Origin: a virus
Virus record (IMG/VR): IMGVR_UViG_3300036766_000644
Coordinates: 48,685 to 112,684 of that record
Direction: 5' to 3' (one strand)
Length of the DNA: 64,000 bases
The translations under genes were made by a program, and so were the position numbers. Positions 3,003-44,758 of this stretch are shown here, piece after piece. Position 1 is the first letter of the stretch; every line of letters starts with the position of its first letter. The notes under the pieces were generated by a model, which worked only from the letters and a program-made list of their open reading frames with translations, did not search any database and was not told the DNA's origin.

Positions 3003-3452
3003 TCACTCATCCGACGCAACAGGCGCTGTCCGAGAAGAATCGTACGCCTTACCAACCGCCTGCCCAACCGGCGCCAAAAGCATTCCGCCGCCAATCTGTC
3101 CTGCCATTCCGAGAGGGCCTCCTAGCAGAGATCCTGCGGAGCGGCCAAGCAAATCCCCGACGAGCTCTCCACCACCGGTATCAGGATTAGCGCGGGATTG
3201 AAGAAAAGAACCCATGATGGGCCAGGCCAACGCCGCGGCTATTGCACCGGGGCTCCGAGGGAGCGTCTTGGTGATGAGCCCCTTGCTGGGGTGGAAAAGC
3301 TGCCCTTTTTGAAACTGCTTCAGCGCTTCACGCGGCTGTCCGAGCCCTTGGCGCTGTACCTCTTCGAGGTAGTCGTCCCAGCCGCCAGCGCACTTCACAC
3401 CGAAGGAATGCAGAGCCGCACGGACACCTGCGGATTGCGCCAGGGGTAGCAT
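3003..3452 (-). CDS. hypothetical protein, Gly-rich C-terminus (149 aa)
   Basis: ORF whose ATG overlaps the stop of the upstream beta' C-half gene (TGATG). Confidence 0.55.
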   Translation of the reverse strand: MLPLAQSAGVRAALHSFGVKCAGGWDDYLEEVQRQGLGQPREALKQFQKGQLFHPSKGLITKTLPRSPGAIAAALAWPIMGSFLQSRANPDTGGGELVGDLLGRSAGSLLGGPLGMAGQIGGGMLLAPVGQAVGKAYDSSRTAPVASDE

Positions 3453-5251
3453 CAGTACCTTCCCTCAGGGCCCATACCGAATTCGGACCCATATGCGTAA
3501 GCCGAGACTGGGTGGACGCTGTGGCGATCCGATACTGCGCCAGTGCGAGCCCCCTGTAGGAGACTGTCCTTCAAGTAGCGGTGGGCGAGTCGCGCCATCC
3601 AATCGGGGTGCAGAAGAGGATTGCGGGCCATCGGGCGCATCATGAACTCAACCCGAGGGAGATTCGTCGCAACACTGACGTGGGTGACGCCGTGTGATTT
3701 CAACGTCGCAAGTATCGACGCCGAAAGGGGGGTGCCCGCGGTGAAGTGAAGAACTTCTTTGCCCAGCACGCCACCAGCGGCCTGCGCCAGGGGGACTTCG
3801 TGGCTGCTCCTCCCCGCTGCGTCGCGGTACACGTCGTACGGGAGTACTTCACCTTTTAGGAGTTCAGGATGTGCGTCGGAGTGATCGAGAACCTTGATGT
3901 GGTTGAGATCTGCGCGGGCGACCAGTTCAAGGTGCCGCTTATCGACATTGATTCCTTGACCGGAATAGATGTCATGAAGTGTGTCGACGAGATATTGCCG
4001 CCCCACTCCGAAACCTTTGTGTTGGATGAGCTCATCTGGCTTTGGGATCCCTTCGGAGAGGACATCACCGGCCTCCACCTTCTGGCCCACGGTTACGCGA
4101 GGCATCAAATTCGGGCCTACGTAGTGTTGTACCGTATCTACGTAGATATAGGTACCGCCGTGAGACGCGGGCGCAATCTTTGTGACCGCCCCCGTATGTT
4201 CCGCCAAAGCGGCCTTGTTGATGAAGCTCTGCGGAACCTCGAGGAGCTGTCGGATCCCAGGCATCCCCTGAAGCTTCGATGAGCTCCCCTTCAAGGACCG
4301 CCCACCGTGCTTAGCGCCTAGCGCCATTTGCGTCAGCGGCTCTGAGATCGACTGCGCGGCACGGACACCGACGTTGATACCGATGGCATGCGGGCGCCCA
4401 CGCTCATCTAGGCCCTGGCACTTCCGGCAGATCCCCTCAGGGGCGGCGCAGGACATCGGAGACCGTACGTAGACCGTCTTGACGTTGTCCCGTAGTTTGG
4501 ACGCTACGGCCTTGGTCACCAGGTCGTTGCGGTGGAGCCCCGCCTGGTCCTTCGACAGGTATCGATCGACGATGTTTCCGTCGGAGCTTGCTAGGGCGAT
4601 ACCGTTCAGCGTCCCGCAGTCATCCTGGGTGATGACCAACGGGTACATGTTGTTGGTCATGATCTTCAACATGTCGCCCGGCTCAGAGATGGAAATGGCC
4701 GCCTGTACCGTGGCGTGGCGAACGTCGTTACCCGCGGTCCAGTAGTCCGCGGCGCTGAGCCCTTCGGCATAGGACTTGTGCACCAGCCACGGATGAATTG
4801 CGCCGTGACTCGTCGTGACCGCCACCGGGGAGGTGACCGTCTTCATCAGCTGTTCCATGTTTCCACGGGCTCCGGAGAGAGCCATCGCGGTCATGGTGCC
4901 GGGGTGCTGGGCTGTCTGAGCTTTGAGCGCCGCTTGGGCGTCGAGGATGATCTTCTCTCGTGCGTCCCTAGTAGTAGCGTTCTTCAGCGCCGCGATGGCG
5001 GGGAGCATGATCTTGTCGCGGGCGTGGTACATGGGTGTGATGTCGTCGATTCCGACGGACACCCCCTCCAGCGTCGAGATGTCGTCGCCAAGAGCTTTCA
5101 GCTTGCTGACGATGTCAACGTACGCCGTAGGGTCCTCGTTGGCGAGGTCCAACATCTTCTGCGTGAGCTCCTTCTTGCCCATCGCGCCAGTGATGTGTTG
5201 GTGCGCGGGGAGAAGATCGTTGATCAGGTATTTCCCCAGCGTCTGAGCCAT
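3452..5251 (-). CDS. RNA polymerase beta' subunit, C-terminal half (split beta' homolog, 599 aa)
   Basis: SGARGNMEQLMKTV resembles SGARGS..Q. GVRAAQSISEPLTQMALGAKH resembles the AAQSIGEPGTQLTMRTFH trigger-loop and bridge region. SPMSCAAPEGICRKCQG resembles C..GVCAHCYG. Confidence 0.85.
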   Translation of the reverse strand: MAQTLGKYLINDLLPAHQHITGAMGKKELTQKMLDLANEDPTAYVDIVSKLKALGDDISTLEGVSVGIDDITPMYHARDKIMLPAIAALKNATTRDAREKIILDAQAALKAQTAQHPGTMTAMALSGARGNMEQLMKTVTSPVAVTTSHGAIHPWLVHKSYAEGLSAADYWTAGNDVRHATVQAAISISEPGDMLKIMTNNMYPLVITQDDCGTLNGIALASSDGNIVDRYLSKDQAGLHRNDLVTKAVASKLRDNVKTVYVRSPMSCAAPEGICRKCQGLDERGRPHAIGINVGVRAAQSISEPLTQMALGAKHGGRSLKGSSSKLQGMPGIRQLLEVPQSFINKAALAEHTGAVTKIAPASHGGTYIYVDTVQHYVGPNLMPRVTVGQKVEAGDVLSEGIPKPDELIQHKGFGVGRQYLVDTLHDIYSGQGINVDKRHLELVARADLNHIKVLDHSDAHPELLKGEVLPYDVYRDAAGRSSHEVPLAQAAGGVLGKEVLHFTAGTPLSASILATLKSHGVTHVSVATNLPRVEFMMRPMARNPLLHPDWMARLAHRYLKDSLLQGARTGAVSDRHSVHPVSAYAYGSEFGMGPEGRY

Positions 5252-5254: not shown

Positions 5255-5857
5255 TTAGCCGCCGAGGCCGTTATCCGGGGTACCGCCACCACCCTGGAGC
5301 TTGCTCATGGCGTAGGCCATCCCAATCCCCGGGAGTTGTCCCCCGAGGGCGTGACCCCATGTTCCTGCGTGCGCCGGGTCGCCTTTCATTCCACCCATCA
5401 CGTTACTGAGGAAACCGCCATTCGCCGGAGCGGCCGGAGGAGCCGCGGCGCCACCAGCGGCAGGCGCAGCGGCGCCTGCGAGATGACCCTTCACGCCGTC
5501 CCAGATCTGTTGCCCTAGTCCGGGTTGACCCGCCGGTGCGCCAGCAGCGGGAGGAGCGCCAGCAGCGGGAGGAGCGCCAGCAGGAGGTGCGGCGGGAAGT
5601 TGAGGCTTCTTCGTCACACCAACCCCCGCAGTCTGAGGAGCGGCGGCCCCAGCCGCGGCGCCAGCTGCAGGGACGGCGGCCTGCGGCACGGGACCGACGG
5701 CCGGAGCAGCACCTTTAAGCGGCGCAGCCCCAATCGGGGATCCTGTTCGTGCGCTACGGAACACATTCACATTCGTCGGAGGCTTGAACGCCCCCGCCTT
5801 ACAGAACGTACCCCACGCAGCGTTGGACCCCTCGGCGTATGCAAAGTCACTGATCAT
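5255..5857 (-). CDS. low-complexity Ala/Pro/Gly-rich protein (200 aa), probably disordered
   Basis: ORF inside the RNAP operon. Its N-terminus MISDFAYAEG resembles that of the next gene upstream (MMMNLAYAEG). Confidence 0.5.
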   Translation of the reverse strand: MISDFAYAEGSNAAWGTFCKAGAFKPPTNVNVFRSARTGSPIGAAPLKGAAPAVGPVPQAAVPAAGAAAGAAAPQTAGVGVTKKPQLPAAPPAGAPPAAGAPPAAGAPAGQPGLGQQIWDGVKGHLAGAAAPAAGGAAAPPAAPANGGFLSNVMGGMKGDPAHAGTWGHALGGQLPGIGMAYAMSKLQGGGGTPDNGLGG

Positions 5858-6144
5858 ATTGCAGCTCCATCGCGGCCAACGCCGGAGTAGTCGTAAGAAG
5901 AGGCGCCAACGCCCCAGGGAGTAGTCACGCCGCCCCAGCGAACCGGATTACCGAAGCGCTTCTTTTTCTCGTCTTGTGAAGGTGCCTCGTCCTCAAGTTC
6001 GGAGAGGTGCTTGGCGAGACGTTCCGCAGATACACTTAGGTCGCCTTTCGGCATCCCGCGGTGGAAGCTATCGGAAGCGGTCCTGAGACCAAACTCTTCC
6101 TCGGCGCGGGCTTTACCTTCTGCGTAGGCGAGATTCATCATCAA
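5854..6144 (-). CDS. hypothetical small protein (96 aa)
   Basis: ORF with a 4-nt overlap onto the downstream gene. Shares the N-terminal AYAEG motif with its neighbour. Confidence 0.5.
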   Translation of the reverse strand: MMMNLAYAEGKARAEEEFGLRTASDSFHRGMPKGDLSVSAERLAKHLSELEDEAPSQDEKKKRFGNPVRWGGVTTPWGVGASSYDYSGVGRDGAAI

Positions 6145-6286
6145 GGGGAGCTTAGGTTACTTGTTGGAGCTGGACAATCGATTCGGTTTGACAGAGTTCT
6201 CTTTCCAGCCCACCAGAGCCTCGCGCCGCTTAAGCGCTTCCTTCAGCTTCTTCGCGAGATCCTCCGACGCCTGTTGTTGCCCTTCT

Positions 6287-6928
6287 TCAAACGCCCGCTT
6301 GAGGAGTGGTTCCACCGGCGCCTCCTTCGCAGAACATCATCCGGCGTAGATCGTCTGCGTGCTGTTGGTCAGTGAGCGCCATCTGCTCGAGCATCACTTT
6401 GATGGAGAGGTTCTCCCCCGCCATGAGCGATAGGTTACGCAGCTCTTGGATGATCTGCTTCTCAGCCTGAAGCAGGACCATGAAAATCTGGTGGAGGTCG
6501 TTGATGTCCGGGATGGTGCTCACCTTAGGCGTGGGCTCACCACCTAGAGCCGTGATCTTCATCGTGAGGTGGTAGGCGTCTTCACGCTCTTCCCCTGCGT
6601 GCTCCTTGAAGTGGTCGTAGATGACGTCTCGGAAGTGAGCCCGGATCCGGTCACCGTAGTTGATGTACATCATCATCGTGGTGTACTTGAGCTTGAGCAG
6701 CTTCAGGCACTGCGCCACGATCTTTTCCTGAGGGACGGCGAACAGGCCTTCCTCGGGGGAGACGGCCAAGGGATGAACACCCTCAGATGCGGTGGGCTGG
6801 GGGATGGGAACTTCAGCTCCGGCGGCGTCAGACATCTGCGCGTCAGGGGATTGTACTTGCTCCGTAGGAACCTCAATGGCTCCGTCTGACGCGATCTTGT
6901 AGCGCTGCGTGTATACCTTGGTCGTCAC
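6287..6928 (-). CDS. hypothetical protein, possibly ferritin-like four-helix bundle (213 aa)
   Basis: ORF overlapping the beta-beta' stop by 4 nt. Periodic E/H/Q residues (…EHAGEEREDAYH…EKQIIQELRN…LEQMALTDQQHADDLRRM) resemble ferritin or rubrerythrin-like metal ligands. This is a weak call. Confidence 0.55.
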   Translation of the reverse strand: MTTKVYTQRYKIASDGAIEVPTEQVQSPDAQMSDAAGAEVPIPQPTASEGVHPLAVSPEEGLFAVPQEKIVAQCLKLLKLKYTTMMMYINYGDRIRAHFRDVIYDHFKEHAGEEREDAYHLTMKITALGGEPTPKVSTIPDINDLHQIFMVLLQAEKQIIQELRNLSLMAGENLSIKVMLEQMALTDQQHADDLRRMMFCEGGAGGTTPQAGV

Positions 6929-9900
6929 GGGCCCACCTCTACTTTGGTGTTGAGATTTATTTCACCACGCTTGTACGCCGCGTAAGCGTCTGCCTTCGTC
7001 TTGAAGTGGTGCGTTTTGGCGTTGTCCGACCCTACCGCCTTCGTTGCCAAGTGTATCCCTAGCATAGCCTCCATGCGGGGAGCGACCATCAGGCTGTTCT
7101 TCTCTCGGTCGGCGAACAGGAGGTTGGAGAGGGTCAGCCCCTTCACCTCCTGCACAGCGCCTGGGAGGACGGGGACGTGAATCTGGAACGTGTCCCCGTC
7201 GTAGTCGGCGTTCATCCCAAGCTCGATGAAGGGGTTCACCCGAATCGTCTTACCGGCGACAGGGACGGGGTTTGCGCCAACGAAGCCGTAGCGGTGCAGC
7301 GTAGGGGCCCGATTCACCATGACGGGGCGTTCCTTGATCTCCACCATCAAGGCTGTGAGAGCGGCAGGATGCTTCTCCTCTACCATCTCCTTCGAACGAA
7401 CGGCGTTGAACCCCTGGCGCACGAGGCGGGCGATGACGAACTTGCCGTACATCCCCCACAACATGTCGATCGGCAGGCCAATCTCGTCCATGCCCAGAGC
7501 GCCATCGGGAGCGATGGTCCCGCGGCCAGAGACGTCCTGCTGGCGCTTCATGATCTTTTTCTGGAAGAAGCTGCTCTTCGGCGTTGTCTTCCCGGTGATG
7601 TGCTCGAGGAAGCCCTTCACATTGCGCTTCAGGAGCTTCGGGTTGTCCGACTCATGCGTCCCGATGACGGCCCCCACGGCGTTGAACAGATTCTGCCGAA
7701 GCTTGGCGTGTTCATCGGGTGGGAGGATCGGTGACTCAACCTGCCGCTGCAGCGCTTTGTTGTGCAGCATGGCGGCGGCGTAGAGGTAGTTCGCGTCACC
7801 CACGACGAGCTCTGAACCGCCCTTCCCCGCTTGCACTGGGCGCATGATGGGCGGGAGGACCGGGAGCTTGGTCAGCACGTAGGCGTCGCCAGGCTTGAGC
7901 CCCTGCTTGTTCAGCGCGGAGAGAAACTTGAGATGTTTCACCGCGTCGTCCAACTTGACACCACTGCTCTTTTTGATCGATTCTCGAATAGTCTGCATCT
8001 GGCCAGGAACGTCGATGGCGTTCAACTTCTTCTTCACTGCGTCGGCCCCGTGCTGGAACCGGAACAGGTCGAAGTCTTTCGCCGTCATTCCTAGAAGTCG
8101 CCGAGCTGGCTCTGCGAACACAGGGTTTACGACGGACTCGGCCAAGTCGATGTGGCTCCAGCGGGTGCCGTCGGTACCTCCGGTAACCGCCGGGTCGAAC
8201 AACCCACCACGCTCCGCGGCTAGATCTTTGGCGCGGACAAGCTTCTCGTTTTGGATGGCCCCAGAGGACATTCGCATGATGTCCTTGTCCGTGAGAGGCG
8301 ACAGCGTGCTGAGACTCCCTCGAGTGTCCACCTTGACCCCGGCCCCGTGCAGCATGCCGATGAACTTGTCGTAGGCGAACGTCGTCTTCAGCGGAGGCAG
8401 GGGTAGCCCGAGCTGGATGGCCTTCCAGAACTCGTCGTTCTTCTGGCTCTTGATCGCAGCCGTCTCGCGAAGAACGTTGCGGGCGTTGTGCGCTACGAGG
8501 GCGTTGAACTCCATCTTACCGACGGCCTTCGCACCTTCGTCGCCGCCTTTGATGGGCTGCTGATTTACGTCGTACGCCCCAGTACCGCGAGCCGCGAAGT
8601 TGGTCTCGGTGGTCTTGAACAGGCGGAGCACGTACTGCGGCCCGACGAGGATGCCGGGGATCTTCTTGCCCGATACCGGGTCGAACACCGTCTCCTTGTC
8701 CTTGACCCCGTGCTCCTTCATGAGGTCCTTTGTCCACTGCACGTTGTCCCGCCCGGAGAAGTTAGCCACAGCGATCGGTTTACCGATCTTCCTGGCCACT
8801 TTCGCGACACACGTCTCGAGGACTTGAGCCGGGTTGATGCGGGAGATGATGCCTGCGGACGTGTACAGCACGTCCAGGGGTTTACCGCCCTCGTCCTGTA
8901 GCATCTGATGGTCAGGGATGATGCGGGAGACGACGCCCTTGTTTCCGTGGCGTCCCGTGAGCTTGTCGCCTACGCGCATGGGCTCCTTGGTACGCACTGT
9001 GACGAGGACCCGTTTGTCGGTGACGTGAACGTCTGTGACGTCCCCCTCGAAGTCGTGGTCCCAGGTGCGGACGAGCTCACGGTACGGGTTAACGAGCGTC
9101 TTCTTGAAGTTGGCCAGCAGAGTGTCCGACGCGGACAGCTTTCCCTTGGTAACCCCGGCGATCAGGATGTCATGCGGCATGACCTTCATGCCTTTGCGCA
9201 CGACGCCGTTCGCGTCGAGCTTGCGGTACTGGTCCGCGGTGTACTTCGGACCGTAGTACTGGCGGTGCATTTCACGCCCCACGACGGCGTCCCGCTCAAC
9301 CTCCAAAACCTCCTTGTACATGTGCTCCGACGTCAACTTGTCGGCGGCTCCCTCGGAGATGACGACAGCGTCATTCGAGTTCAGCCCGTAGTACGGGATG
9401 TACCCGATGGTCATGTTGCGCCCGAGCGCGAAAGCACCATCGCGGGTGAAGTTGGAATCGGCGAGGCGCTGATTCGCTTCGACGTGATCCCCGGGCTTAA
9501 CGAGGATGTCGTGGTGAAGGTACGTCTTGGATGCGAAGGGAAAGTTGTCCTCGTAGGGTACGCGGATGAGATCTGCTTCGGCTGCGGCCTTCTCGCGCTG
9601 ACGCTCGGAGAGGTAGTCGTCCTGGAACTCGTCCCACGTGTACTCTTCGAGAGACCCAAAGCCCCACTCGGGACCGTGTTTCTGGTACGCCTCCTTCGCA
9701 GCGTCCTTGGAGTCGAAGCCGACCATGCACTTGTCTTCATCGTGCGACCCGTCGCGCTTCTTTTGGCGAACGACGTACACGTGATCGAAGGTACCGTCTT
9801 CCTTCAGGTAGATGTCCACCGTCTCGCCATCATCCCCAACCGTCTTGGGGATGTGCCCGTAGGCGAGAGACATCTTCTTCTCCCACTTCTTGCCCTCAAG

Positions 9901-11736
9901 GGAGACGCCAGAACGAATGTCCCCAGGCTCGAGCTCGAGCTTGAAACACAAGCCCTTGATCGTCTTTTGGCGCTTGACGGCGCCGCCCCTCTTTTCGAAG
10001 GAGTTCTTTTCGAAGACGAAATCCTCGGCGTGCTTCTTCCCGCTTGGGTCGATGTAGATGTACTGCCCGTCGATCCGAACTACCTTCCCCGAAACAGGGG
10101 CGAAAGGAAGCTCCATCAACGCCAGGACCTTCTCCCAGCTCGAGTGCTCCTTACCTTCAGAGTCGCGAATGCCGGATTGAACGAGAGGCGCCTCGCGATG
10201 TACGAGGGGCAGCGCCTGCGTCATGGACTTGCCTCCCATGATGCCGCGGTTCCCCTGCACGGACTCCAAGAAGGGGACAAGGTTTGTCGCCGGGGAGTAG
10301 AGGTGAGAAGCGTCAACGAGGGCGTGCGTGCACGTCGATGCCGGAACCATTTCGACGGTTCCTTTGCGCATCGCAGAGATCATCCCAGACGTCTTCTGGT
10401 TCGGGAACGAGATTACGGCGTTGCCCATCTCCGCCGCGGACAGGAGCGTGTTCTTCCCAGTCTTGAGATCCTTCACCGGGGCGTAGAGGTTGCCGCGCTC
10501 ATCCCTGTGAGCGTACATCGCGGTGCGAATGTCGATGCCCGCTCGGAAAGTCTCCGACGTCCGCACCGGGTCAAGAAGCCCGAAGTGGCTTGAGTGAATC
10601 GTCCGAGCTTCCGCCGGGATTGCCCGCTCATTGGCGATGCCGCCTTCGCCCAGCGAGGTCACGCGAGCTGCGTGGTCGATTGCCTCCATGGGGTTGATGT
10701 GCGTCGGGATCGAGCTCAGCTGAGATCCTGTGAGGAAGCTTCGAATGCCTGCGGAGAACGGAGACGCGGGGAGGATCGTCCGGAGCTCCGTCTTGTGCGT
10801 TGCCCGGCCCTTCACCTTGCTGGCGAGAGCTCGTGCATCCAGGGTGATGCGCTCTTTGATGAAGTCGTCAACGGAGTGGTACGTCTTGAACCGAAGAGCG
10901 TCGCGGTCGTCGGTGTCCTCATTGTTCTTGTAGACGTTGAGGAGGCGCTTCGAAGCAGTCAGCAGGGCGAGGGGCGTCACCGACGCGAACTCGTGCCCGA
11001 GTGTTTCTTTAGTCACCCCAGGGTCCATCGCTGTCGTCGAGTACGCCGCTTTCACAGCCTCCAGCTGTGTCTCAGGGTTCGTCGCCGTTCGCTTGGCAGG
11101 ATGGACCAGTTTCTCGTAAAGCTTGGCGAGGTGTTTGTCGTGCTTTCCGTCGAATTCCGCCTCATTCTTTCCCGCGACATCAGAGCCCCACGCCGTAGCG
11201 ATCTCCCCGTGAGCCGTACCGAGCTTACGGAGTACTGAGTAAAGAGGAATCGCGGTGGTCCCGTACTCGATGTACGGGTGACCCTTTGTAGGGTCCATGG
11301 ACAAGCGGAAGTTCATGCCCTTCGACAAGTTGAAGGCTGCCTCGAGCTCTTCGTTTCCGCGACGCCGAGTGTACACACCTGGCTTGAGGCGCAGCTGGTT
11401 CGAGACGTTGTACTCGTTGCCGTCCAGGATGAAGGTGTGGCGCCCTGTGAAGTAGGGGAGGTTCAGCAGCGTGAAGTTCTTGACCTTCTCGAGCTCCTTG
11501 CCCGCTGCGTCACGAAGGACGACGGTGCCTTTGACCTGCTCGAACAAGGAGCCGCCGCTGAGCAGGGCGTTCTTCTGATCCTTCGGACCGAAGTCTTTCT
11601 CGTGAACCTTTAGATCTGTGAGCTCGATACGCTTATCGCGTAGCGCCAAGGGGAAAGCCGTCTTGAGCGCCTCCAGCGCCTTCGCCCGAATGTTGGTTCG
11701 GCGAGACTCCGGGTCTGTCATCACAGGGGTCAGCAT
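6925..11736 (-). CDS. fused RNA polymerase beta + beta' N-terminal (catalytic) half, 1603 aa
   Basis: Beta hallmarks GRHGNKGVVSRIIP and GKMEFNALVAHNA (cf. GEMEVWALEAYGAA). Beta' hallmarks follow in the same frame: VLPPIMRPV, NRAPTLHRYGFVGANPV and the NADYDGD Mg-binding loop (cf. NADFDGD). Highly diverged from cellular enzymes. Confidence 0.9.
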   Translation of the reverse strand: MLTPVMTDPESRRTNIRAKALEALKTAFPLALRDKRIELTDLKVHEKDFGPKDQKNALLSGGSLFEQVKGTVVLRDAAGKELEKVKNFTLLNLPYFTGRHTFILDGNEYNVSNQLRLKPGVYTRRRGNEELEAAFNLSKGMNFRLSMDPTKGHPYIEYGTTAIPLYSVLRKLGTAHGEIATAWGSDVAGKNEAEFDGKHDKHLAKLYEKLVHPAKRTATNPETQLEAVKAAYSTTAMDPGVTKETLGHEFASVTPLALLTASKRLLNVYKNNEDTDDRDALRFKTYHSVDDFIKERITLDARALASKVKGRATHKTELRTILPASPFSAGIRSFLTGSQLSSIPTHINPMEAIDHAARVTSLGEGGIANERAIPAEARTIHSSHFGLLDPVRTSETFRAGIDIRTAMYAHRDERGNLYAPVKDLKTGKNTLLSAAEMGNAVISFPNQKTSGMISAMRKGTVEMVPASTCTHALVDASHLYSPATNLVPFLESVQGNRGIMGGKSMTQALPLVHREAPLVQSGIRDSEGKEHSSWEKVLALMELPFAPVSGKVVRIDGQYIYIDPSGKKHAEDFVFEKNSFEKRGGAVKRQKTIKGLCFKLELEPGDIRSGVSLEGKKWEKKMSLAYGHIPKTVGDDGETVDIYLKEDGTFDHVYVVRQKKRDGSHDEDKCMVGFDSKDAAKEAYQKHGPEWGFGSLEEYTWDEFQDDYLSERQREKAAAEADLIRVPYEDNFPFASKTYLHHDILVKPGDHVEANQRLADSNFTRDGAFALGRNMTIGYIPYYGLNSNDAVVISEGAADKLTSEHMYKEVLEVERDAVVGREMHRQYYGPKYTADQYRKLDANGVVRKGMKVMPHDILIAGVTKGKLSASDTLLANFKKTLVNPYRELVRTWDHDFEGDVTDVHVTDKRVLVTVRTKEPMRVGDKLTGRHGNKGVVSRIIPDHQMLQDEGGKPLDVLYTSAGIISRINPAQVLETCVAKVARKIGKPIAVANFSGRDNVQWTKDLMKEHGVKDKETVFDPVSGKKIPGILVGPQYVLRLFKTTETNFAARGTGAYDVNQQPIKGGDEGAKAVGKMEFNALVAHNARNVLRETAAIKSQKNDEFWKAIQLGLPLPPLKTTFAYDKFIGMLHGAGVKVDTRGSLSTLSPLTDKDIMRMSSGAIQNEKLVRAKDLAAERGGLFDPAVTGGTDGTRWSHIDLAESVVNPVFAEPARRLLGMTAKDFDLFRFQHGADAVKKKLNAIDVPGQMQTIRESIKKSSGVKLDDAVKHLKFLSALNKQGLKPGDAYVLTKLPVLPPIMRPVQAGKGGSELVVGDANYLYAAAMLHNKALQRQVESPILPPDEHAKLRQNLFNAVGAVIGTHESDNPKLLKRNVKGFLEHITGKTTPKSSFFQKKIMKRQQDVSGRGTIAPDGALGMDEIGLPIDMLWGMYGKFVIARLVRQGFNAVRSKEMVEEKHPAALTALMVEIKERPVMVNRAPTLHRYGFVGANPVPVAGKTIRVNPFIELGMNADYDGDTFQIHVPVLPGAVQEVKGLTLSNLLFADREKNSLMVAPRMEAMLGIHLATKAVGSDNAKTHHFKTKADAYAAYKRGEINLNTKVEVGP

Positions 11737-11819
11737 GTCCGTAAGTATAGCTCCCTTTTTGGTATCAGTAGCTGAGTCCCCACTTAGGGCTCAACTCGCA
11801 GTATCACCGGAGGGTGAAC

Positions 11820-12614
11820 ATGGGAACGAGTAAGAAAAAGAAGACGACGCGAAAAGTACTTCACGCAGGGCACGAGGTCGCAAATCACCTCGTCAACATC
11901 CGCGACGTGGGTGACGCTACGCTACCCGTAATCAAGCTGGCGTACGTGTGCATCAACGACGATCCGAAGGCGTGGAGCAAGCGAAGCGGTGGGATGATAA
12001 GCGGGGCGATGCCCCGGAACGCAAAGATCGCAGCGAAGCTGTGCGCAGGAGCCCGCTGCTTCTTTTGTGGTCGGCCGCAGGAACCGAGCCCGGCGAAGAC
12101 GTTGCTCGACTTCCATCCCGAGTACCCGCTGTGCGAGTGCTTGATGCCACTGCGACAGCTGGCCTACGACTACATCCCGGACTGGCACACGCCGGAGGGG
12201 AACAAGCTGCTCGTGGAGAAGGCGAACGCCGGGGCGTTGAATCGGAACGACCCGGTGTACCAGTACATGTGTGACTGCGGAGAAGGTCCGTACGTCGTAC
12301 ACGTTGGGCGCGTGGCTCATGCGCTCACGATGTTCAAGAGGCACCGGAGGTTGACGCGGTGCGATGCGTGTTACCGTAAGATGGCGCAGCAGAAGTTGTT
12401 GCAGCGGCGCCAGTTCGAAGCACGGAAGGACCCGCTGAAGGTGGCGGTGCAGGAGCTCATCGAGAAGCCGAAGACCGGCCCGGAGGGGAAGATCACTCGG
12501 GATCGGAAGAACAAGAAAAACAAGCCCGTCGAGGGAGCACATCCCGTGTTCATCCCGACTGTGCTGCAACCCCTGTCGGCGCTCGAGGCAGCGCCTGAGA
12601 CCACCCCCACGTGA
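11820..12614 (+). CDS. hypothetical Cys-rich protein with multiple CxxC pairs (265 aa)
   Basis: ORF divergent from the RNAP operon. GGAGGG lies 5 nt before ATG 11820. The track begins it at GTG 11814. Confidence 0.65.
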   Translation: MGTSKKKKTTRKVLHAGHEVANHLVNIRDVGDATLPVIKLAYVCINDDPKAWSKRSGGMISGAMPRNAKIAAKLCAGARCFFCGRPQEPSPAKTLLDFHPEYPLCECLMPLRQLAYDYIPDWHTPEGNKLLVEKANAGALNRNDPVYQYMCDCGEGPYVVHVGRVAHALTMFKRHRRLTRCDACYRKMAQQKLLQRRQFEARKDPLKVAVQELIEKPKTGPEGKITRDRKNKKNKPVEGAHPVFIPTVLQPLSALEAAPETTPT

Positions 12615-12709: not shown

Positions 12710-13207
12710 CTAGAGATCAGGCTCAGGAGACGTACCGTCAACCCCGACCTTGGTTGCTTTTTTTGCTTTGGCCTTCTTCTCGAACCACCGCACGGACATC
12801 AGGAGACTGCCGTCCTTTTGGGGGTACTCCTGCTCTGACCCAAAAATGTGCTTACCGGAGAGAGTATCGTTGATCGTGGTCTCGTACTCCTCCTTCTTCG
12901 TGTGCGGGCACAGGTAGTCCCCGACATCCGGGAGAGACGCGGCTCCTGATGCCAGGTCCGCCCCGCACCTGGCGCAGGCATCCCAGGGGCGGAAGATGAG
13001 GAACACGTCACGGTGGATCTTGAAGTCGAACGCGGTTACCCCCGCGATACCGTCCTCTGACGTTTCGACCATTCGGTGCGACGGGTTCGACTCCAGCGGG
13101 AAACCGTCGGGAAGATCCTTGCCCAGCGACTCGAAGTCCGCGGGCGTACGCATCGCTGAGTTGAGGATCGACGCGAAGTCAGACCCGGCTTCTGTTTTTA
13201 GGGGCAT
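12710..13207 (-). CDS. hypothetical protein (165 aa)
   Basis: ORF with GC3 bias, downstream of the 575-aa gene. Confidence 0.6.
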   Translation of the reverse strand: MPLKTEAGSDFASILNSAMRTPADFESLGKDLPDGFPLESNPSHRMVETSEDGIAGVTAFDFKIHRDVFLIFRPWDACARCGADLASGAASLPDVGDYLCPHTKKEEYETTINDTLSGKHIFGSEQEYPQKDGSLLMSVRWFEKKAKAKKATKVGVDGTSPEPDL

Positions 13208-13216: not shown

Positions 13217-14944
13217 TTACATCGGCTGCGGTTGGCCAGCTTGCGCTTTCGCTTGGGCACCTTGTTGGTTCTGCATGTCCTCGAGCCGCTGAACGACCAC
13301 GGCGTACATGACGGCGTCCTCTGCTTGGAGACTGTGCATCTGTGACCGCCGAGACCCCGGGTCGAGGCCCATGAGCTGTTGTACGATCTGGTCCGCTTGC
13401 GCGATGACCGCCTGCTGATCGTAGTTGAGCCCTGACGCCTGCTGCGCCTGGTTCTGCACCTGCTGCGCCAGGTTGTTCTGGAGCTTCTTGACCTCGTTCT
13501 GTACGCGCATCTGGTGTCGTGTCTCGTCGAGCGTCTCTTGAAGGCGCTTCTCCCGCTCCTCGTCGAGATCGATGTCGAGCTTCTCCATTACGGTGGTCAT
13601 CGACACGTACTGCTGCCCCTGCTGACCGGTGGCCATGTTGATGAGCATCTGCTTGGACTCGGTATCGTCCACCATCTGAAGCGGCGTGAGCTTGGCCTCC
13701 AGTTTCTCCCAACCGAGGAACTTCGCCAGGCTGTCTGCGTACCACTGCAGCAGATCGTTCATGTCATCGGCGTGGCCTTGTGTCTGGTTCTGGATCAGGC
13801 GGAGCGTGGCCTCCATGCCCGCCTTGGTCAGACCGCCGTACAGGAACTCCTGCGGGATGCCAAGCGCCGCCATGATGCTCTTCTCGGCTTCCTGGAGCTC
13901 GCCGATGGTGAGCATCGCACGCCCGTCGCCGCCCAAGTTCGATACGCCAAGAGCAACAGGCGCCATCATGATGTGCAGAGGGTCGCGACGCCAACGACGG
14001 ATGTTGGTCTTCATCTCGTCCTGCCAGCGGGCGAGTGAGATCATCTGGGTGAAGTCCTGCTGGCCGTTCTGTGCCGGGTGCAGGATGCGCATCGGCACGA
14101 CATGCTCCAGCGCGATGGCTTCGTTCGCCTTGCGCAGGACCAGGGTGTAGAGGAACAGCTTGATGGTCGAGGCGAGAGGAGGGAAGCCCCACTGCTGGTC
14201 GATGCCTGATGGGCTTGCGACCTTGATGTGGAAGAGGGCGTCCTTCTCGAAGCGGAAGGTCTTGTTGTCGCGGATGTTCTCGAGGAACTCCATCGGCATG
14301 GAGTTGATGAGGTGCTTCGACCCCGACTTAACCTGGTCTTTGATGTCCTGCGGGATGTTGTAGTAGTACACCGACTGACCCGTGATCGGGTTGTAGTCGA
14401 TATCCATCAGCTTCGGGTCCCAGCGGATGATGTGCACCTTGCTGGCGGCCAGGATCTTCCGGTCAACCACCGTGCCCTGCACCATCTTCTTGCACTTGTT
14501 GCAGTGGTAGGTGAACGTCAGCTTCTTAAGCTCGAACTTGTAGTCGACGTGATTGATCGACGTCATCGTATGACAAGTCGGGCATTTGAGGCTGCGTACG
14601 AAGGGCTTGTAGATCGAGGTGAAGTGGTTACCGTAGACGTGCTTGTCCAGGGACGCCATCAACAGAGCGGACTTGATCTTTAGCGTCTTCTCGAAGAGGC
14701 GTCGGTAGTTCCGCCGCAGCGCTTCGTTCGACGTGCCGTACTCGATGTTGGTGACGACGAGCTCACCGAATTTACGCAGCGCGGCGTAGACGTGGGCGCT
14801 ATTGTAAAGTAAATATTCGCACCATTTAAAGAGGTCCTTGAGCTTTCGTGGGACGAAGCCCGTGAGAAAGTCGAAGGCCGGGTTGGGGTGTGACGCAGCC
14901 CTGTCGAAGGCCGACATCGAATCTGTGTTCGGATTATCCGCCAT
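13217..14944 (-). CDS. hypothetical protein with CPTC…CNKC zinc ribbon and Gln-rich coiled-coil C-terminus (575 aa). A portal-like role is speculative.
   Basis: Long ORF overlapping the HNH gene by 11 nt. I recognised no catalytic motif. Confidence 0.75.
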   Translation of the reverse strand: MADNPNTDSMSAFDRAASHPNPAFDFLTGFVPRKLKDLFKWCEYLLYNSAHVYAALRKFGELVVTNIEYGTSNEALRRNYRRLFEKTLKIKSALLMASLDKHVYGNHFTSIYKPFVRSLKCPTCHTMTSINHVDYKFELKKLTFTYHCNKCKKMVQGTVVDRKILAASKVHIIRWDPKLMDIDYNPITGQSVYYYNIPQDIKDQVKSGSKHLINSMPMEFLENIRDNKTFRFEKDALFHIKVASPSGIDQQWGFPPLASTIKLFLYTLVLRKANEAIALEHVVPMRILHPAQNGQQDFTQMISLARWQDEMKTNIRRWRRDPLHIMMAPVALGVSNLGGDGRAMLTIGELQEAEKSIMAALGIPQEFLYGGLTKAGMEATLRLIQNQTQGHADDMNDLLQWYADSLAKFLGWEKLEAKLTPLQMVDDTESKQMLINMATGQQGQQYVSMTTVMEKLDIDLDEEREKRLQETLDETRHQMRVQNEVKKLQNNLAQQVQNQAQQASGLNYDQQAVIAQADQIVQQLMGLDPGSRRSQMHSLQAEDAVMYAVVVQRLEDMQNQQGAQAKAQAGQPQPM

Positions 14945-15389
14945 TTGCGATCCTCAAGCGTTCTTGACGGCCTTGGTGTGAACGTGCCGCGGTTCGGATG
15001 CGATGACAGTTAGAGCAGACGACTTCGCACTTGGCCGCCTCCGCGAGTATAGCTTTTTCCGAAAATTTGGAAGACATCATATTCGAGATCGCAGACCGCT
15101 TCTTAAACTGTGGTAGATGGTCGAAGTCCATCACGCAGGGAGGGTACGGTACGCCACAATCGGCGCACGGTCTAGCCTTGAGCCCCTCCACCAGCGCCCG
15201 ATTTCGTTTAGCTGTATCGATGGCGTACTGCGCAAGCCGAGCAGCATTTTTGTCGGCCCACTTACGGTACTCTTTCTTGGAGCATTTTTTACAGTAGCTG
15301 TGGCGGTACCCTTTGGCACTCAGCACGAAAAACTTGAGCAGTCTGCATTTTCCGCAAAGCGAGCAGACCTTGTTCGGCCCATAGTCCAT
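14934..15389 (-). CDS. HNH endonuclease (151 aa)
   Basis: N-terminal CxxC…CxxC finger plus CADCG…DFDHL…CEVVCSNCH, an HNH/His-Me finger signature. Confidence 0.75.
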   Translation of the reverse strand: MDYGPNKVCSLCGKCRLLKFFVLSAKGYRHSYCKKCSKKEYRKWADKNAARLAQYAIDTAKRNRALVEGLKARPCADCGVPYPPCVMDFDHLPQFKKRSAISNMMSSKFSEKAILAEAAKCEVVCSNCHRIRTAARSHQGRQERLRIANGG

Positions 15390-15435
15390 GTGCTATACTT
15401 AGCTTAACCTAACAGGAAAAACAAACGGAGCGTTC

Positions 15436-17493
15436 GTGCTGGACATAACGCTGGAGCTAGTAAACGGGACACCGGTGTTCGCGTCACCTGGGATGTACCC
15501 AGGATTAGAGAGGGTTCATGCGGGGATACTCGACATGGAGAAGAAGCGTTGGCGCTTCCCCGCCTACCCACCTTTTGGCCTACTCGCCGTAAATGATCTT
15601 AAAAAAGTCATCAAGGGTATCCGCTTCTCCCCGGAGGCGGAGCAGCGGATCAAGTGGCTCGAGGGGGTGCCGCAACGCATCAAAGACCGCGTACTCCCTG
15701 AGGGGTTTACCTTCGTAACGAAGCCCTTCGACCACCAAATTGGCGTGCTGGCGCAGATGCTCCAGTACCCTCGTTTCGCGCTGTACCTTGACGCAGGAAC
15801 AGCTAAAACGAAGATAGTGATCGACTACAAGCGCTGCTTCCCAGATAAGCGGATGCTCGTAGTCACTCCCCTTGTAACCGTGGACAACTGGGTACGCGAA
15901 GTAGAGCTACATGCCGGAGGGAGCGTAAAAGCGGTCGCGATGCAGGGCGACCCCGAGCGAAAAAGAGACGTCATAACGAGGTACAAGGAGTACGACGTAA
16001 TCGTAGCTAGCTATGGGACAGCTCGAAACTTCGGCTTTCCCCGGCTCTACCCCGCGACACTCGCAGCCCTCAAGTCAGCGCAAGCTGCTGGGGTTCCGCT
16101 GAGTGCAAGCGGGCTCGCAAACCTTGTCCGGTGGATCCGCGTTATTTCGGATCCGGACCGGCAGCTCGACATGGTGGCGGCGTGGGCGCTTGGTGCCCCA
16201 ATGACCCACGTCCAACGCTTCGCTGCAGCAGAGGCAGCTCAGAGCGCTCAGTGGATGATGGACCTGGACTTCGACATCATCGTTGCTGACGAAAGCCACA
16301 ACCTGAACAACATCTCCTCGCAGCAGACCAAGGTAGCTCTGGCGCTGTCGAGGAAGGCGGGCCACCGGTACCTGATGTCCGGCACACCGACTCTCGGTGA
16401 CCCGCGTCACCTGTACGCCCAGATGAAGTTCCTATCTCCGGCGATCATCCCGGAGGAGTGGCGCGAATTCTCCGACATGTTTTTAGAAATGCACCCGTGG
16501 AACAAGCACCAGGTGACGGGGTTCAAGAACACCAACATCCTGAATACGCGGGTGAATCGCGTCTCTATTCGTATGACGAAAGAGGAGTGTCTCGACCTTC
16601 CTCCGCGGTCGATCATCGACATCCCGGTCGAGCTCTCCAGCGAACAGAAGAAGCTCTACAACAAGCTGGTGGGGGACCTGGAAGCAGACCTCTCTGCGTT
16701 CTTCGAGAGCGAAAGCACCCTCGTCGTACAGAACGCGGCGGTGCTGCTGAACAAGTTGGCGCAGGTTACCTCCGGGTTCATCATCGACAGCCAGCGCAAG
16801 TCTGACTTCTGCGACAACTGTCCTCGGCTGGTCAAGTGCGTGGACGAGAACGTTCAGCCGTACACTGCTCGCTGCGAAGTAGCGCAGAAGCCGCCTCCGG
16901 GCCTGCTCAACGTGCTCAAGGAGAACCCGAAGCTAGAGATCCTCGAGGGGCTACTAGACAAGATCCTTGTGAACGAAAAATCCAAGGTCATCGTATGGGG
17001 TGTCTACCATGCGGAGCTTGACGCCATCACGGAGCTGCTCGAGAAGAAGAAGATCGGGTTCGTCCGGGGCGGGGAAGGTAACGTCCAACAGCGGATCGAC
17101 AAATTCAATTTAGACCCCGAGTGCCGGGTGTACTTCGGGCACGTTGCGACGGGCATTGGAATCACGCTCAACGCAGCGACGTACATGATCTACTACGCAC
17201 TCCCCTGGTCACTCGGGCACTACCTCCAGTCAATCGACCGGAACTACCGAGCGGGGCAGTTCGAGAAAGTAATCGTCTACCGCCTTATCGCGGCGCACAC
17301 CGTGGACATGTTCAAGGCGCTGGCGCTCAATCAGAAGAGGGACCTCAGTGCGTCGCTGACGAACAAGATCGCCTGTGCTACCTGCCCGCAGATGGACAGA
17401 TGCCTCCGGGACAACGTAGAAATGTACGACCCGGCGTGCCTCTACCAACGTAACGTAAAACGCATTGTCGCCAAAGCGGAGCTGCTCACATGA
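15436..17493 (+). CDS. SNF2-family helicase / DNA-dependent ATPase (685 aa)
   Basis: LDAGTAKT resembles Walker A. DESHNLNN is the DExH box. LMSGTPTLGDPRHLYAQMKFLSP is SNF2 motif III. C-terminal QSIDRNYRAGQ is motif VI. GTG start with GGAG upstream. Confidence 0.85.
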   Translation: MLDITLELVNGTPVFASPGMYPGLERVHAGILDMEKKRWRFPAYPPFGLLAVNDLKKVIKGIRFSPEAEQRIKWLEGVPQRIKDRVLPEGFTFVTKPFDHQIGVLAQMLQYPRFALYLDAGTAKTKIVIDYKRCFPDKRMLVVTPLVTVDNWVREVELHAGGSVKAVAMQGDPERKRDVITRYKEYDVIVASYGTARNFGFPRLYPATLAALKSAQAAGVPLSASGLANLVRWIRVISDPDRQLDMVAAWALGAPMTHVQRFAAAEAAQSAQWMMDLDFDIIVADESHNLNNISSQQTKVALALSRKAGHRYLMSGTPTLGDPRHLYAQMKFLSPAIIPEEWREFSDMFLEMHPWNKHQVTGFKNTNILNTRVNRVSIRMTKEECLDLPPRSIIDIPVELSSEQKKLYNKLVGDLEADLSAFFESESTLVVQNAAVLLNKLAQVTSGFIIDSQRKSDFCDNCPRLVKCVDENVQPYTARCEVAQKPPPGLLNVLKENPKLEILEGLLDKILVNEKSKVIVWGVYHAELDAITELLEKKKIGFVRGGEGNVQQRIDKFNLDPECRVYFGHVATGIGITLNAATYMIYYALPWSLGHYLQSIDRNYRAGQFEKVIVYRLIAAHTVDMFKALALNQKRDLSASLTNKIACATCPQMDRCLRDNVEMYDPACLYQRNVKRIVAKAELLT

Positions 17494-17924
17494 GACTGAT
17501 CTTGGAGAAGGAAGAAATCGTAGCCATCCTGGGGAAGCACTTCGACACGGAGCTTGACCCGACGAAAGTCATCATCCGCACGGACCCGTTTGAGATCGAA
17601 GTTTGCGGCCTCCCCTTGGGGTCTGGGGATGCCCCGCCACCGAAGAAAGAGGACAACGTCGTCGCGATGCCCCAGGTTTCGCGAAGAACTCCGGTCGCAG
17701 AGACGCAGCTCGTTCAGCGAGCTGACGAAGACGCAACAACGGAAGACCCCGAGCCCGGAAACGACGGGATGGGTGGAGACGCCGCGGCCATCCACCCTGC
17801 TGCGGTGCTGGCAGCATCGAAGGCGCTGGAGGCGCAGTTGGACCGGGAGAACCCCAAGCTGGCACGCCGGTCCGGGAGGTGGTCGGAAATAGCACCAACA
17901 AGCTCAAAGGATGAGATCGAATGA
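17490..17924 (+). CDS. hypothetical acidic protein (144 aa)
   Basis: ORF with ATGA overlaps at both ends. Confidence 0.55.
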   Translation: MRLILEKEEIVAILGKHFDTELDPTKVIIRTDPFEIEVCGLPLGSGDAPPPKKEDNVVAMPQVSRRTPVAETQLVQRADEDATTEDPEPGNDGMGGDAAAIHPAAVLAASKALEAQLDRENPKLARRSGRWSEIAPTSSKDEIE

Positions 17925-20646: not shown

Positions 20647-20786
20647 ACCCTCTCGTACTCAAAGTCATCGGCGTCCTGGCGGCGTACCGAAAGTGGTATG
20701 CCGCCGGGATGACGGATAAAGAGATCTCCCAGAAGATCCGCGAGACGTACCCGGCACAAGCTCGGCCGTTCCGCCCTACTCGGTAA
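20643..20786 (+). CDS. hypothetical small protein (47 aa)
   Basis: GTGA overlap with the parB-like stop. Low confidence. Confidence 0.3.
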   Translation: MNPLVLKVIGVLAAYRKWYAAGMTDKEISQKIRETYPAQARPFRPTR

Positions 20787-21609
20787 AGACGTCGCGAGCG
20801 CCACCAACCTGGTTCGCAACCAAGTAGACTCGTAGCTGGGCCATCGTATCTTTTTTGATCTGGCGTACTCTCTCGGAGGACAAGTCAACTCGCTTTGAGA
20901 TTTGTCGGAGGTTCTTCGGTTCCTCCCGGGCTCCGAAGTACGCCAGGACGATGTACTTGTCTCGCTCTCGTAACGCCAAGCCGTCTAGCGCGGAACGGAG
21001 CATGTTGAACCCATAGGAATTTACGAGGTCGCGTTCGAGGGTGTTGTCGCCGTGCCCTGCGTCGTCGATGGCATCAACGACGTCAAGCGTAACGTGGGCG
21101 GCTTCCACCTCAGTACCCCCGCCATGCTTTCGTAGCGCTCGTAGGGCCTTCTGTTTATGCGCGGGGACACGAATGATGCCCTGGCTGTCGAGCTCTTCAA
21201 GAATCTTTTCACGGACCCACCAGGCGGCGTACGTCAAGAACTTGGTGTTTCTCGTCGTATCGAACCGGTCCGCGGCTACCAACAGACCGATGTTCCCCGC
21301 GGAAATGAGCGTCGTCAAGACGTCGCTCTCGAAGTTAACGCCTCGAGTACGGTACGCATATTCCTTGGCCACCTTCACCACGAAACGAAGCGCGCCGGAG
21401 ATGAGCCGGTCGCGTGCTTTGAAGTTTCGAGGAGCACTGCACTTGGCGCAGCGAACCAAAGAAGACCCTAAGGGGTAGGTGTTTCGACAGGACGAACAGG
21501 TTCGGTACGCCGCGACAAGAGCGGCCTCTTCGCTCTGTGAAACAAAGGAGTTACCTCGCATGTCCGCAAAATACGCCTCAATGACTCGGTCACCGTCGTC
21601 GTTGCTCAT
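20776..21609 (-). CDS. sigma-70 family sigma factor with N-terminal Cys4 zinc ribbon (277 aa)
   Basis: Region 2: LISGALRFVVKVAKEY…NIGLLVAADRFDTTRNTKFLTYAAWWVREKI (cf. LIEANLRLVVSIAKKY…[31 protein letters not shown]). Region 4 HTH: LRERDKYIVLAYFG…LRQISKRVDLSSERVRQI. N-terminal CSSC…CAKC. Confidence 0.85.
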   Translation of the reverse strand: MSNDDGDRVIEAYFADMRGNSFVSQSEEAALVAAYRTCSSCRNTYPLGSSLVRCAKCSAPRNFKARDRLISGALRFVVKVAKEYAYRTRGVNFESDVLTTLISAGNIGLLVAADRFDTTRNTKFLTYAAWWVREKILEELDSQGIIRVPAHKQKALRALRKHGGGTEVEAAHVTLDVVDAIDDAGHGDNTLERDLVNSYGFNMLRSALDGLALRERDKYIVLAYFGAREEPKNLRQISKRVDLSSERVRQIKKDTMAQLRVYLVANQVGGARDVFTE

Positions 21610-44528: not shown

Positions 44529-44758
44529 GGTGGGCTCACTGCCGTGGATGCGGATCTGAGCTGGGGCTACAAAAAGCGGATCAGCTCGACGGGCTCTGTA
44601 GCATCCAGATCTCAAATGGCTGCTTCACGAAGGCGAACAGGTGGGCCATTCGTCAGAAGCTCATCAAGGCCTACGGGGCGTACACAGACATTGAAGTAGC
44701 CACGGCTGCCCCGTGGCAAGTAGCCATCGACATGTGGCTCGAGGCGGGGAAGCCGTGA
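44525..44758 (+). CDS. paralog 4 of the tandem zinc-ribbon family (77 aa)
   Basis: CRGCGSEL…DGLCS. C-terminal AIDMWLEAGKP. ATGA overlap. Confidence 0.55.
   Translation: MRWAHCRGCGSELGLQKADQLDGLCSIQISNGCFTKANRWAIRQKLIKAYGAYTDIEVATAAPWQVAIDMWLEAGKP

Follow-up and report, generated by a model that had tools for sequence, protein, structure and literature searches.

In a 64-kb window of a 188.6-kb viral genome (IMG/VR record IMGVR_UViG_3300036766_000644, positions 48,685 to 112,684), we identified an open reading frame (ORF) on the minus strand, 6925..11736, which very probably encodes the larger chain of the two-chain catalytic core of a phage-encoded, bacterial-type multisubunit RNA polymerase. 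This chain of 1603 amino acids (aa) fuses a β subunit to the catalytic N-terminal half of β′ (β′N), and the remainder of β′ (β′C) is encoded by a separate gene of 599 aa at 3452..5251 on the same strand. RNA synthesis by the enzyme is predicted from the catalytic signatures that it retains. The multisubunit RNA polymerases described in phages fall into two kinds: those broken up into four or five small subunits (phiKZ, AR9) and those diverged past sequence recognition (crAss-like phages, YonO). The family to which the window's enzyme belongs is clearly bacterial-like yet consists of one or two chains, and represents a natural experiment on the minimal covalent arrangement in which β and β′ still fold and function.

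The fusion ORF starts with an ATG, 5′ of which lies a Shine-Dalgarno-like GGGAG stretch, and runs for 1603 codons with no internal stop to a stop codon at 6925-6927. All the β and β′ motifs quoted in an earlier note on this DNA, which had proposed the fusion from the letters alone, were found in this one frame. Those of β are GRHGNKG (aa 928-934), SAGIISRINPAQVLE (aa 960-974) and GKMEFNALVAHNA (aa 1073-1085), and those of β′ are VLPPIMRPV (aa 1293-1301), NRAPTLHRYGFVGANPV (aa 1475-1491) and NADYDGD (aa 1509-1515, nt 7192-7212), the Mg site of the β′ barrel. Pfam searches recovered β domains and then β′ domains, in the predicted order: Rpb2_3 at aa 346-400 (E = 1e-6), Rpb2_6 at aa 739-1064 (E = 1.7e-49) and a weak Rpb2_7 match, below the cut-off, at aa 1071-1099, followed by Rpb1_1 at aa 1255-1383 (E = 3e-8, under the Pfam curated cut-off) and Rpb1_2 at aa 1468-1535 (E = 4e-17). 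Comparison with PDB chains by phmmer gave matches to bacterial β (E = 1e-71) and to bacterial β′ (E = 9e-44) on non-overlapping parts of the protein. Structure prediction provided the same picture. An AlphaFold2 model of aa 1-1150, with a predicted local distance difference test score (pLDDT) of 82.8 and a predicted template modelling score (pTM) of 0.72, resembled full-length bacterial β (Foldseek E = 1e-68, template modelling score TMt up to 0.74), and a model of aa 1040-1603 (pLDDT 85.6, pTM 0.77) resembled the N-terminal halves of bacterial β′ and cyanobacterial γ (E ~1e-29, TMq 0.64). Profile searches, PDB comparison and models thus agree, far beyond chance, that one chain fuses β to the catalytic N-terminal half of β′, as the earlier note had claimed.

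Two modules can be delimited in the fusion. The β module (aa 1-1137; 8326..11736, minus strand) comprises the lobes, the fork and the double-psi barrel, ends with GAGVKVD, and aligned by blastp to residues 425-704, 763-902 and 979-1295 of Escherichia coli β. The β′N module (aa 1138-1603; 6928..8325, minus strand) contains the clamp helices, VLPPIMRPV and NADYDGD, and aligned to residues 174-550 of E. coli β′; its assignment also rests on Pfam and Foldseek. Identity to E. coli within the aligned stretches of β and β′ was 27-34%. K933 was invariant in an alignment of 40 sequences, and the DxDGD-type triad (xxDxD[GAS]D) was kept in all but 13 of 375 family sequences. Sequences aligning to the σ-binding clamp helices and to the flap region were present, and the E. 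coli lineage-specific insertions SI2 and SI3 were absent. The earlier statement that the sequence is far more divergent than any cellular rpoB/rpoC proved to be too strong, both in view of the PDB matches and E. coli identities given above and because the PHROGs families of split RNA polymerase subunits from phages were matched much more weakly (E = 1e-26 to 1e-8) than bacterial β and β′. The best PHROG matches were 24349 and 25354, two families of 'unknown function' that are full-length β-like and β′-like, respectively; we gave these matches no evolutionary weight because some 'phage' records matched by the fusion in the nucleotide database bear bacterial-style rpoB/rpoC annotations.

The joint between the two subunits (8287..8346, minus strand) was located by a MAFFT alignment of the window protein with the C-terminus of E. 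coli β and the N-terminus of E. coli β′, with full-fusion relatives and with the corresponding protein of Salmonella phage Arash (OQ632216). The β end GAGVKVD (aa 1131-1137) corresponds to the E. coli terminus ...INIELEDE; three residues later (TRG) β′ sequence starts, without a linker, at the equivalent of E. coli β′ ~19. Hence the first ~18 residues of β′ are missing, and so is the zinc ribbon, seen as a 32-residue gap across E. coli C70-C88. The joint region was modelled by AlphaFold with a pLDDT of 85-95. Arash and the relatives of either architecture, whether β′ is divided or continuous, display an identical joint, which indicates one ancestral fusion.

The fusion ends at the equivalent of E. 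coli β′ ~550, just past the NADYDGD barrel. The earlier note had placed a split in β′ right after the active-site domain, and the missing remainder could be located in the gene at 3452..5251 (minus strand). Its 599-aa product contains the bridge-helix region, the motifs DCGT and CRKCQG and the trigger loop AAQSISEPLTQMALGAKHGG at aa 298-317. Pfam detected Rpb1_5 (E = 3e-20) and, weakly, Rpb1_4, and among PDB chains the protein matched bacterial β′ (E = 1e-36). By blastp it aligned to E. coli β′ 725-938 and 1137-1331, passing over SI3. The tail of the fusion (...KVEVGP) and the start of the 599-aa protein (MAQTLGKYLINDLLP) were colinear with the continuous sequence of the single-chain relative P0163 (...TVEVNG-IKT-STGRYLANEILP), and Arash was broken at the same spot of the alignment. 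Alignment to single-chain relatives showed no intein-like extra sequence at the split site; as no residues were lost or gained there, it leaves no room for a split intein. Neither an intron nor any other RNA element was detected at the split or elsewhere in the window at Rfam gathering thresholds. The two chains would assemble non-covalently, by analogy with other enzymes with a split β′. Abutting the end of the β′C gene is an ORF of 149 aa (3003-3452, minus strand) without family match and without counterpart in the closest relative, L010, which may not be a real gene. Neither this ORF nor a 427-aa ORF showed similarity to Arash gp217 or to the 488-aa gene that follows the polymerase at the single-chain locus L008.

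To place the window's enzyme within its family, we drew on protein clusters, on related split loci (L006, L007 and L010), on a single-chain locus (L008) and on Vibrio phage D181 (L002). Among the closest 120 clusters, formed at 90% identity, derived from independent assemblies and with identities of 47-100%, 119 have β, the joint and β′N in a single chain; the remaining cluster is a fragment. Apart from one fragment and a few short C-terminal extensions, the same 120 clusters end directly after β′N. When aa 739-1603 were scanned with HMMER against 1.84 billion representatives, 1,741 matches were obtained at E <=1e-30, and the joint was spanned in the best 150 of these 1,741 (representatives of 50%-identity clusters). 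Isolated phages carrying the fusion were only Arash and the Vibrio phages D69, D181 and D148. The architecture, described as unusual by the earlier note, is therefore so relative to described systems but common in sequence data, where hundreds of metagenomic relatives and four isolates display it. Many relatives of 2,000-2,900 aa (P0013, P0015, P0035, P0036, P0042, P0105, P0222, P0266 and others) contained the intein-associated domains PF14528 and/or PF14890. With regard to host assignment, a scan of a genome collection gave just two short contigs of metagenome-assembled genomes.

By segment BLAST, the 374 family proteins collected included 171 with the split seen in the window and 164 that are complete single chains (~2,000-2,090 aa). 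In the latter (~2,050 aa), β′C directly continues β′N. Both single-chain loci inspected belong to phages: L008 has a portal-like gene directly upstream of the polymerase together with terminase, SNF2 and DnaB genes, and the second carries SSB, PD-(D/E)XK and ligase genes. No isolated phage with the single-chain form was found. When 285 intein-free sequences and Arash were placed in a neighbour-joining tree with E. coli as root, 136 of the 138 split forms fell into one homogeneous clade, nested within a ladder of single-chain lineages. Among 100 bootstraps with 122 taxa, the single-chain group was never monophyletic and strict monophyly of the split clade was recovered 23 times.

The single-chain β-β′ form is thus probably ancestral and the form of the window a secondary fission of β′, because the split proteins align exactly end to end with single chains and are nested among them. 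After fission, the gap between the two halves would have collected unrelated genes. What weighs against this order is that it relies on a neighbour-joining tree with one long outgroup, with which several fissions or a re-fusion would also be compatible, and with strict monophyly of the split clade in only 23 of 100 bootstraps we do not claim a single fission event. The opposite order would have β fused to an already separate β′N, the ~2,050-aa chains being later re-fusions. Such a history would fit the weak support for the split clade, the fact that phiKZ-like phages too split β′ after the catalytic barrel (PMC7824862) and the coordinates of PHROG profiles, in which phage families of the β′N type end near this split site. 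We nevertheless consider it improbable, since single-chain forms were basal and paraphyletic in 100 of 100 bootstraps with the E. coli outgroup, bacterial β′ is unsplit, the split phage families resemble the enzyme far less than bacterial subunits do, and at the break stop and start adjoin cleanly, without loss of sequence. Far more remote still is the idea that the fusion is an assembly or frameshift artefact, or cellular rpoBC DNA of the Helicobacter/Wolbachia type. A single metagenomic contig alone cannot exclude a one-base error, and natural cellular β-β′ fusions do exist (PMC7483510). Yet hundreds of independent assemblies and four isolates share the joint, and Gp206, the Arash fusion protein, was covered by peptides over 100% of its length. 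Moreover, the exact protein of the window sits on a 188,569-bp contig with phage genes all around (portal, large terminase, HNH, nucleases), in agreement with the earlier view that it is element-encoded and not host DNA, and its β′ is truncated, unlike that of the cellular fusions.

Within the β module, aa 573-722 (9571..10020, minus strand) form a slot of variable cargo, occupied in the window by an inorganic pyrophosphatase (InPase)-like domain at aa 587-706 (9619-9978, minus strand; Pfam PF18823, E = 7e-31, profile positions 10-132 of 135). The insertion site falls between E. coli β ~704 and ~763 according to blastp. AlphaFold2 modelled the insert as a folded module, mostly with pLDDT 84-91, behind a low-confidence linker at aa 568-584. 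Residues Y626, G627, D636, E638, D641, D666, E667 and K669 were kept in >=95% of 49 InPase-bearing homologues and agree with the metal-binding signature of type I pyrophosphatases; the insert is thus predicted to be a type I pyrophosphatase-like domain. By sequence, its nearest PDB chain was the C-terminal region (639-748) of gp19, the portal protein of Pseudomonas phage Pa193 (E = 3e-11), a region without density in the cryo-electron microscopy map (PMC11042391). Its PHROG matches included families annotated as minor head proteins, as virion structural proteins and as DarB-like (antirestriction). This InPase clade is typical of virion-packaged polyvalent proteins and of portal fusions, and it has been proposed either to clear pyrophosphate (PPi) for early transcription or to hydrolyse molecules resembling nucleotides (PMC5512222). 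Among 149 proteins of the split clade, the slot ranged from empty (88 proteins) to 333 aa; 61 held at least 125 aa, and 48 were InPase-like. Elsewhere the slot contained a tandem InPase, a GNAT acetyltransferase (E = 1e-10) or a segment weakly resembling a P-loop, and several further inserts could not be assigned. In single-chain relatives, the slot was empty in all of the 103 measured.

Regarding the function of the enzyme, virion delivery was judged the most likely role because of spectra from Arash, of linkage to the portal gene and of the nature of the slot cargo. In mass spectrometry of Arash virions, Gp206 had the top spectral count, 3516, with 128 unique peptides and 100% coverage; Gp216 was represented by 1210 spectra and the sigma factor Gp10 was also detected (PMC10585845). 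Polymerase and portal genes are neighbours in the window, in L006, L007 and L010, in Arash and in the single-chain L008, and in Arash the polymerase genes lie inside the structural module. On these grounds we lean slightly towards an enzyme that would be packaged in the virion, injected and used to transcribe early genes independently of the host polymerase. Promoter recognition would possibly, though with less confidence, be supplied by the phage's own σ70-family factor, whose use is plausible because clamp-helix and flap sequences are retained. As for assembly, some 30 of the window's ORFs were scanned for families and no α or ω homologue was seen among them, which is why the covalent β-β′ link may replace the α-dimer assembly platform.

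Several points speak against this picture. The present phage is known from sequence alone, and Arash, the source of the proteomic evidence, is a relative at 36% identity. The Arash list is permissive, with 116 of 252 proteins virion-associated, ribonucleotide reductase, ligase and primase among them (PMC10585845), and therefore provides only moderate evidence for packaging. With the fusion as tblastn query, the Arash genome gave a match at a single place, and in the parts of its annotation examined gp206 and gp216 are the sole polymerase subunits named; with one polymerase set, the enzyme may act in the infected cell as well, or there alone. The family scan covered ~30 ORFs in 64 of 188.6 kb, so that α, ω or a second polymerase may be encoded elsewhere. 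The sigma gene lies in a block of replication genes and its product could equally redirect the host polymerase; besides, we could not regard it as orthologous to the virion-detected Gp10 of Arash, to which BLAST gave only a short region-2-like match (E = 0.045). The permissive list, the single polymerase set and the position of the sigma gene would all suit an enzyme that is not injected but made during infection and that transcribes middle or late genes, perhaps together with the phage's sigma factor. We regard such a non-virion enzyme, the main rival to virion delivery, as rather unlikely, given that Gp206 spectra exceeded those of all other Arash proteins, the major capsid protein included, that portal linkage is kept in the inspected loci, one single-chain locus among them, and that domain types of the slot are known from packaged polyvalent proteins and from a portal. 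The role of the insert is more evenly balanced: it would either remove PPi at the polymerase or act as a co-delivered effector, with about the same probability. That it is, like the domains of polyvalent proteins, an interchangeable effector carried into the cell, for instance one hydrolysing a nucleotide-derived host signal, instead of an accessory of RNA synthesis, seems to us a little short of an even proposition. The slot holds unrelated domains in relatives and, being empty in more than half of the split-clade proteins and in every single chain measured, is dispensable for polymerase function; nucleotide-like substrates are one of the options in PMC5512222. Conversely, PPi is a direct product of the host enzyme, that is, of the polymerase in which the domain is lodged, and a pyrophosphatase tethered to a polymerase has a simple rationale, also proposed in PMC5512222. 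The catalytic residues of the insert, too, match those of type I inorganic pyrophosphatases. Taking the favoured readings together, one might envisage a self-sufficient, α-independent injected polymerase, packaged near the portal and directed by a sigma factor to early transcription, in which β of the split clade is a plug-in carrier of interchangeable effectors such as a pyrophosphatase or an acetyltransferase (a 'polyvalent polymerase') and the single chains are a clearly homologous intermediate between cellular two-subunit cores and the strongly diverged single-chain polymerases of crAss-like phages; we put this forward as a speculative and, as a whole, doubtful scheme.

The genes lodged between the two polymerase genes (5255..6928, minus strand) are three or four and small. 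A ferritin-like ORF (6287-6928, minus strand; Pfam Ferritin, E = 2e-9) begins with a GTG that shares bases with the TGA of the fusion (GTGA), an overlap which suggests translational coupling of the two ORFs. It is followed by a possible 52-aa ORF (6157-6315, minus strand), found by ORF scan only, and by two ORFs without family match (5854-6144 and 5255-5857, both minus strand). The ferritin-like ORF is also present in L010, 83% identical, and not in L006, L007 or Arash; the window and L010 share it plus two others of the gap genes. At the same position L006 has a single gene (14354-15850) for a LigD-type primase-polymerase (PF21686, PF13298), L007 two small genes, Arash nine genes and Vibrio phage D181 three small genes.

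Upstream of the fusion lie a conserved small gene (12710-13207, minus strand; 26-32% identity to those of L006 and L007) and the portal gene (13217-14944, minus strand), whose product has 29% identity to the Arash portal gp204, 53% to its counterparts at the portal position in L006 and L007 and 33% to the one in the single-chain L008. Between the portal and SNF2 genes is an HNH endonuclease gene (14934-15389, minus strand), probably a mobile insertion because it is absent at the corresponding place in L006, L007 and L010. The SNF2-family helicase gene (15436..17493, plus strand; SNF2-rel_dom, E = 2e-22, and Helicase_C) is divergent from the portal-polymerase block and has homologues in L006, L007, L010 and Arash (gp198). 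Two PD-(D/E)XK (Cas4-like) nuclease genes, at 17921-18823 (plus strand, with homologues in L006 and L007) and 22943-23731 (plus strand), flank a block formed by a ParB gene and the adjoining gene of a 277-aa σ70-family factor (20776..21609, minus strand; Pfam Sigma70_r2 and Sigma70_r4). Homologues of the latter occupy the same relative position in L006, L007 and L010. In these three loci the order sigma, ParB, nuclease and SNF2, then, in the divergent block, portal, small gene, fusion, variable genes and β′C is kept, and a nearby same-strand β′C gene of ~600 codons with an upstream portal gene is a layout common to the window, Arash, L006, L007 and L010. Elsewhere in the window are the genes for the large terminase (28801-30414), for a ribonucleotide reductase homologue (56351-59098) with a tblastn match to an Arash gene, for a 541-aa protein (34146-35771, plus strand) with a VWA-like DUF2201 and a putative metallopeptidase domain, DUF2201_N, and for a family A DNA polymerase and an RNase T-like exonuclease.

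A 266-aa ORF without family match (11814-12614, plus strand) runs divergently from the polymerase gene, with a likely start ATG at 11820 and GGAGG as a strong ribosome-binding site; L010 has a 260-aa gene at that place, and L006 and L007 have only a short gap. The octamer AAGTATAG occurs exactly at 11743, 15393, 34129, 46280 and 52427, four of the five sites being intergenic although intergenic DNA makes up ~8% of the window, and it could be part of a promoter. A search for it as a promoter in intergenic DNA gave no excess above chance at one mismatch, and no shared upstream element was found. At ~38000-52000 the window shows a strongly positive GC skew (0.13-0.17) and many small ORFs, unlike the rest, and this may be the early-gene block named in the earlier note.

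We found no published description of this fusion in the literature searched, mostly outside subscription journals. Homologues are already in GenBank under plain annotations; the architecture, the slot and the likely virion delivery should nevertheless be of interest to students of transcription and of phages. The fission site shows where β′ tolerates cutting, and the slot shows where a whole enzyme domain fits into β. A group I intron in Vibrio phage D181, described below, and the intein domains of relatives illustrate how mobile elements invade a polymerase gene. As a compact polymerase, the enzyme might be of use in structural and synthetic biology, and, if used as proposed, it would add an example of phage escape from host transcription. 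Because isolates exist, namely Arash on Salmonella and D69, D181 and D148 on Vibrio, these proposals are testable at the bench.

Among the isolates, Arash shares the β::β′N fusion (1525 aa; 36% identical across 91% of the query), the split site, a β′C encoded separately (~606 aa) and the position of a portal gene directly upstream; it differs in that its cargo slot is without insertion and that the genes between the halves are more numerous and different. The Arash paper labels the proteins plainly β and β′ and leaves the fusion unmentioned (PMC10585845). In Vibrio phage D69 the fusion match, at 36% identity, lies under a single annotated coding sequence. Vibrio phage D181 (OZ196140) has a separate coding sequence of ~609 aa after the fusion, under the β′C part of a single-chain query match, and its fusion gene is interrupted by a group I intron (L002 8512-9423; RF00028, 100.7 bits, E = 1e-26) with a homing-endonuclease ORF behind it; in the database this stretch is annotated as several separate hypothetical proteins. 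Vibrio phage D148 has the same annotation pattern as D181. Single-chain relatives (P0163, P0288 and P0268; ~2,000-2,090 aa) share the joint, the loss of the zinc ribbon and 35-40% identity, and differ in having a continuous β′, a single polypeptide and an empty slot.

Outside the family, the bacterial core is the nearest solved relative by sequence and fold, and all catalytic elements are shared. In bacteria, however, β and β′ are encoded by two genes and β′ is unsplit, and the phage enzyme is without the β′ zinc ribbon, SI2 and SI3. Cellular fusions in Helicobacteraceae and Wolbachia contain a complete β′ and have normal α and ω partners. In these organisms rpoB and rpoC are fused head to tail in one frame, according to PMC7483510, which cites Zakharova et al. 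1999 and Lane & Darst 2010. A fusion of that type was ruled out for the window, where β′ ends near E. coli 550 in a phage context. In cyanobacteria and plastids (γ plus β′), β′ is likewise divided downstream of the catalytic barrel, and the model of the phage β′N matched γ with a TMt of ~0.6. The rpoC1/rpoC2 split site was nevertheless rejected as an equivalent, since the phage chain ends at γ ~556 of 624-626, that is, ~70 residues upstream.

With the polymerases of the phiKZ/AR9 type, which occur in jumbo phages as virion and non-virion sets, the enzyme of the window has in common that it is a phage-encoded two-barrel polymerase without α or ω, as far as the ORFs scanned here can tell, and that β′ is split after the barrel; in that type one set is packaged (PMC7824862, PMC7598289). 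It differs from them in that their β is split into two or three pieces; they contain no fusion, come as two paralogous sets and have no phage-encoded sigma factor (PMC7824862). With an unsplit and fused β, a single matching place of the fusion query in Arash and a σ70 gene in the window, only the β′ split is shared, and we did not assign the enzyme to this type. The crAss-like phi14:2 gp66, YonO and the tape-measure-fused polymerase of P23-45 are single-chain two-barrel enzymes, and those of crAss-like phages and P23-45 are reported to be virion-packaged. The crAss-like enzyme and YonO escape detection by cellular β/β′ profiles (PMC7481178), whereas the window's enzyme matched cellular profiles and structures at E = 1e-49 to 1e-71, which sets it outside this group. 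Parallel in setting is mReC (multisubunit-RNAP-encoding Caudovirales; Weinheimer & Aylward 2020), a group of metagenomic tailed phages with bacterial-like β and β′ beside hallmark genes (PMC7481178). This group is defined by separate β and β′ genes, each of at least 800 aa, and by a distinct deep clade; its contigs, in the rows of Supplementary Data 2 examined, have two different genes each, with a β of ~920-1560 aa and a β′ of ~900-1370 aa, and the paper uses 'fusion' for crAssphage only (PMC7481178). Membership of mReC is thus not supported: by gene layout as given in those rows, the window's polymerase stands apart from it, with β and β′N in one chain and a β′C of 599 aa.

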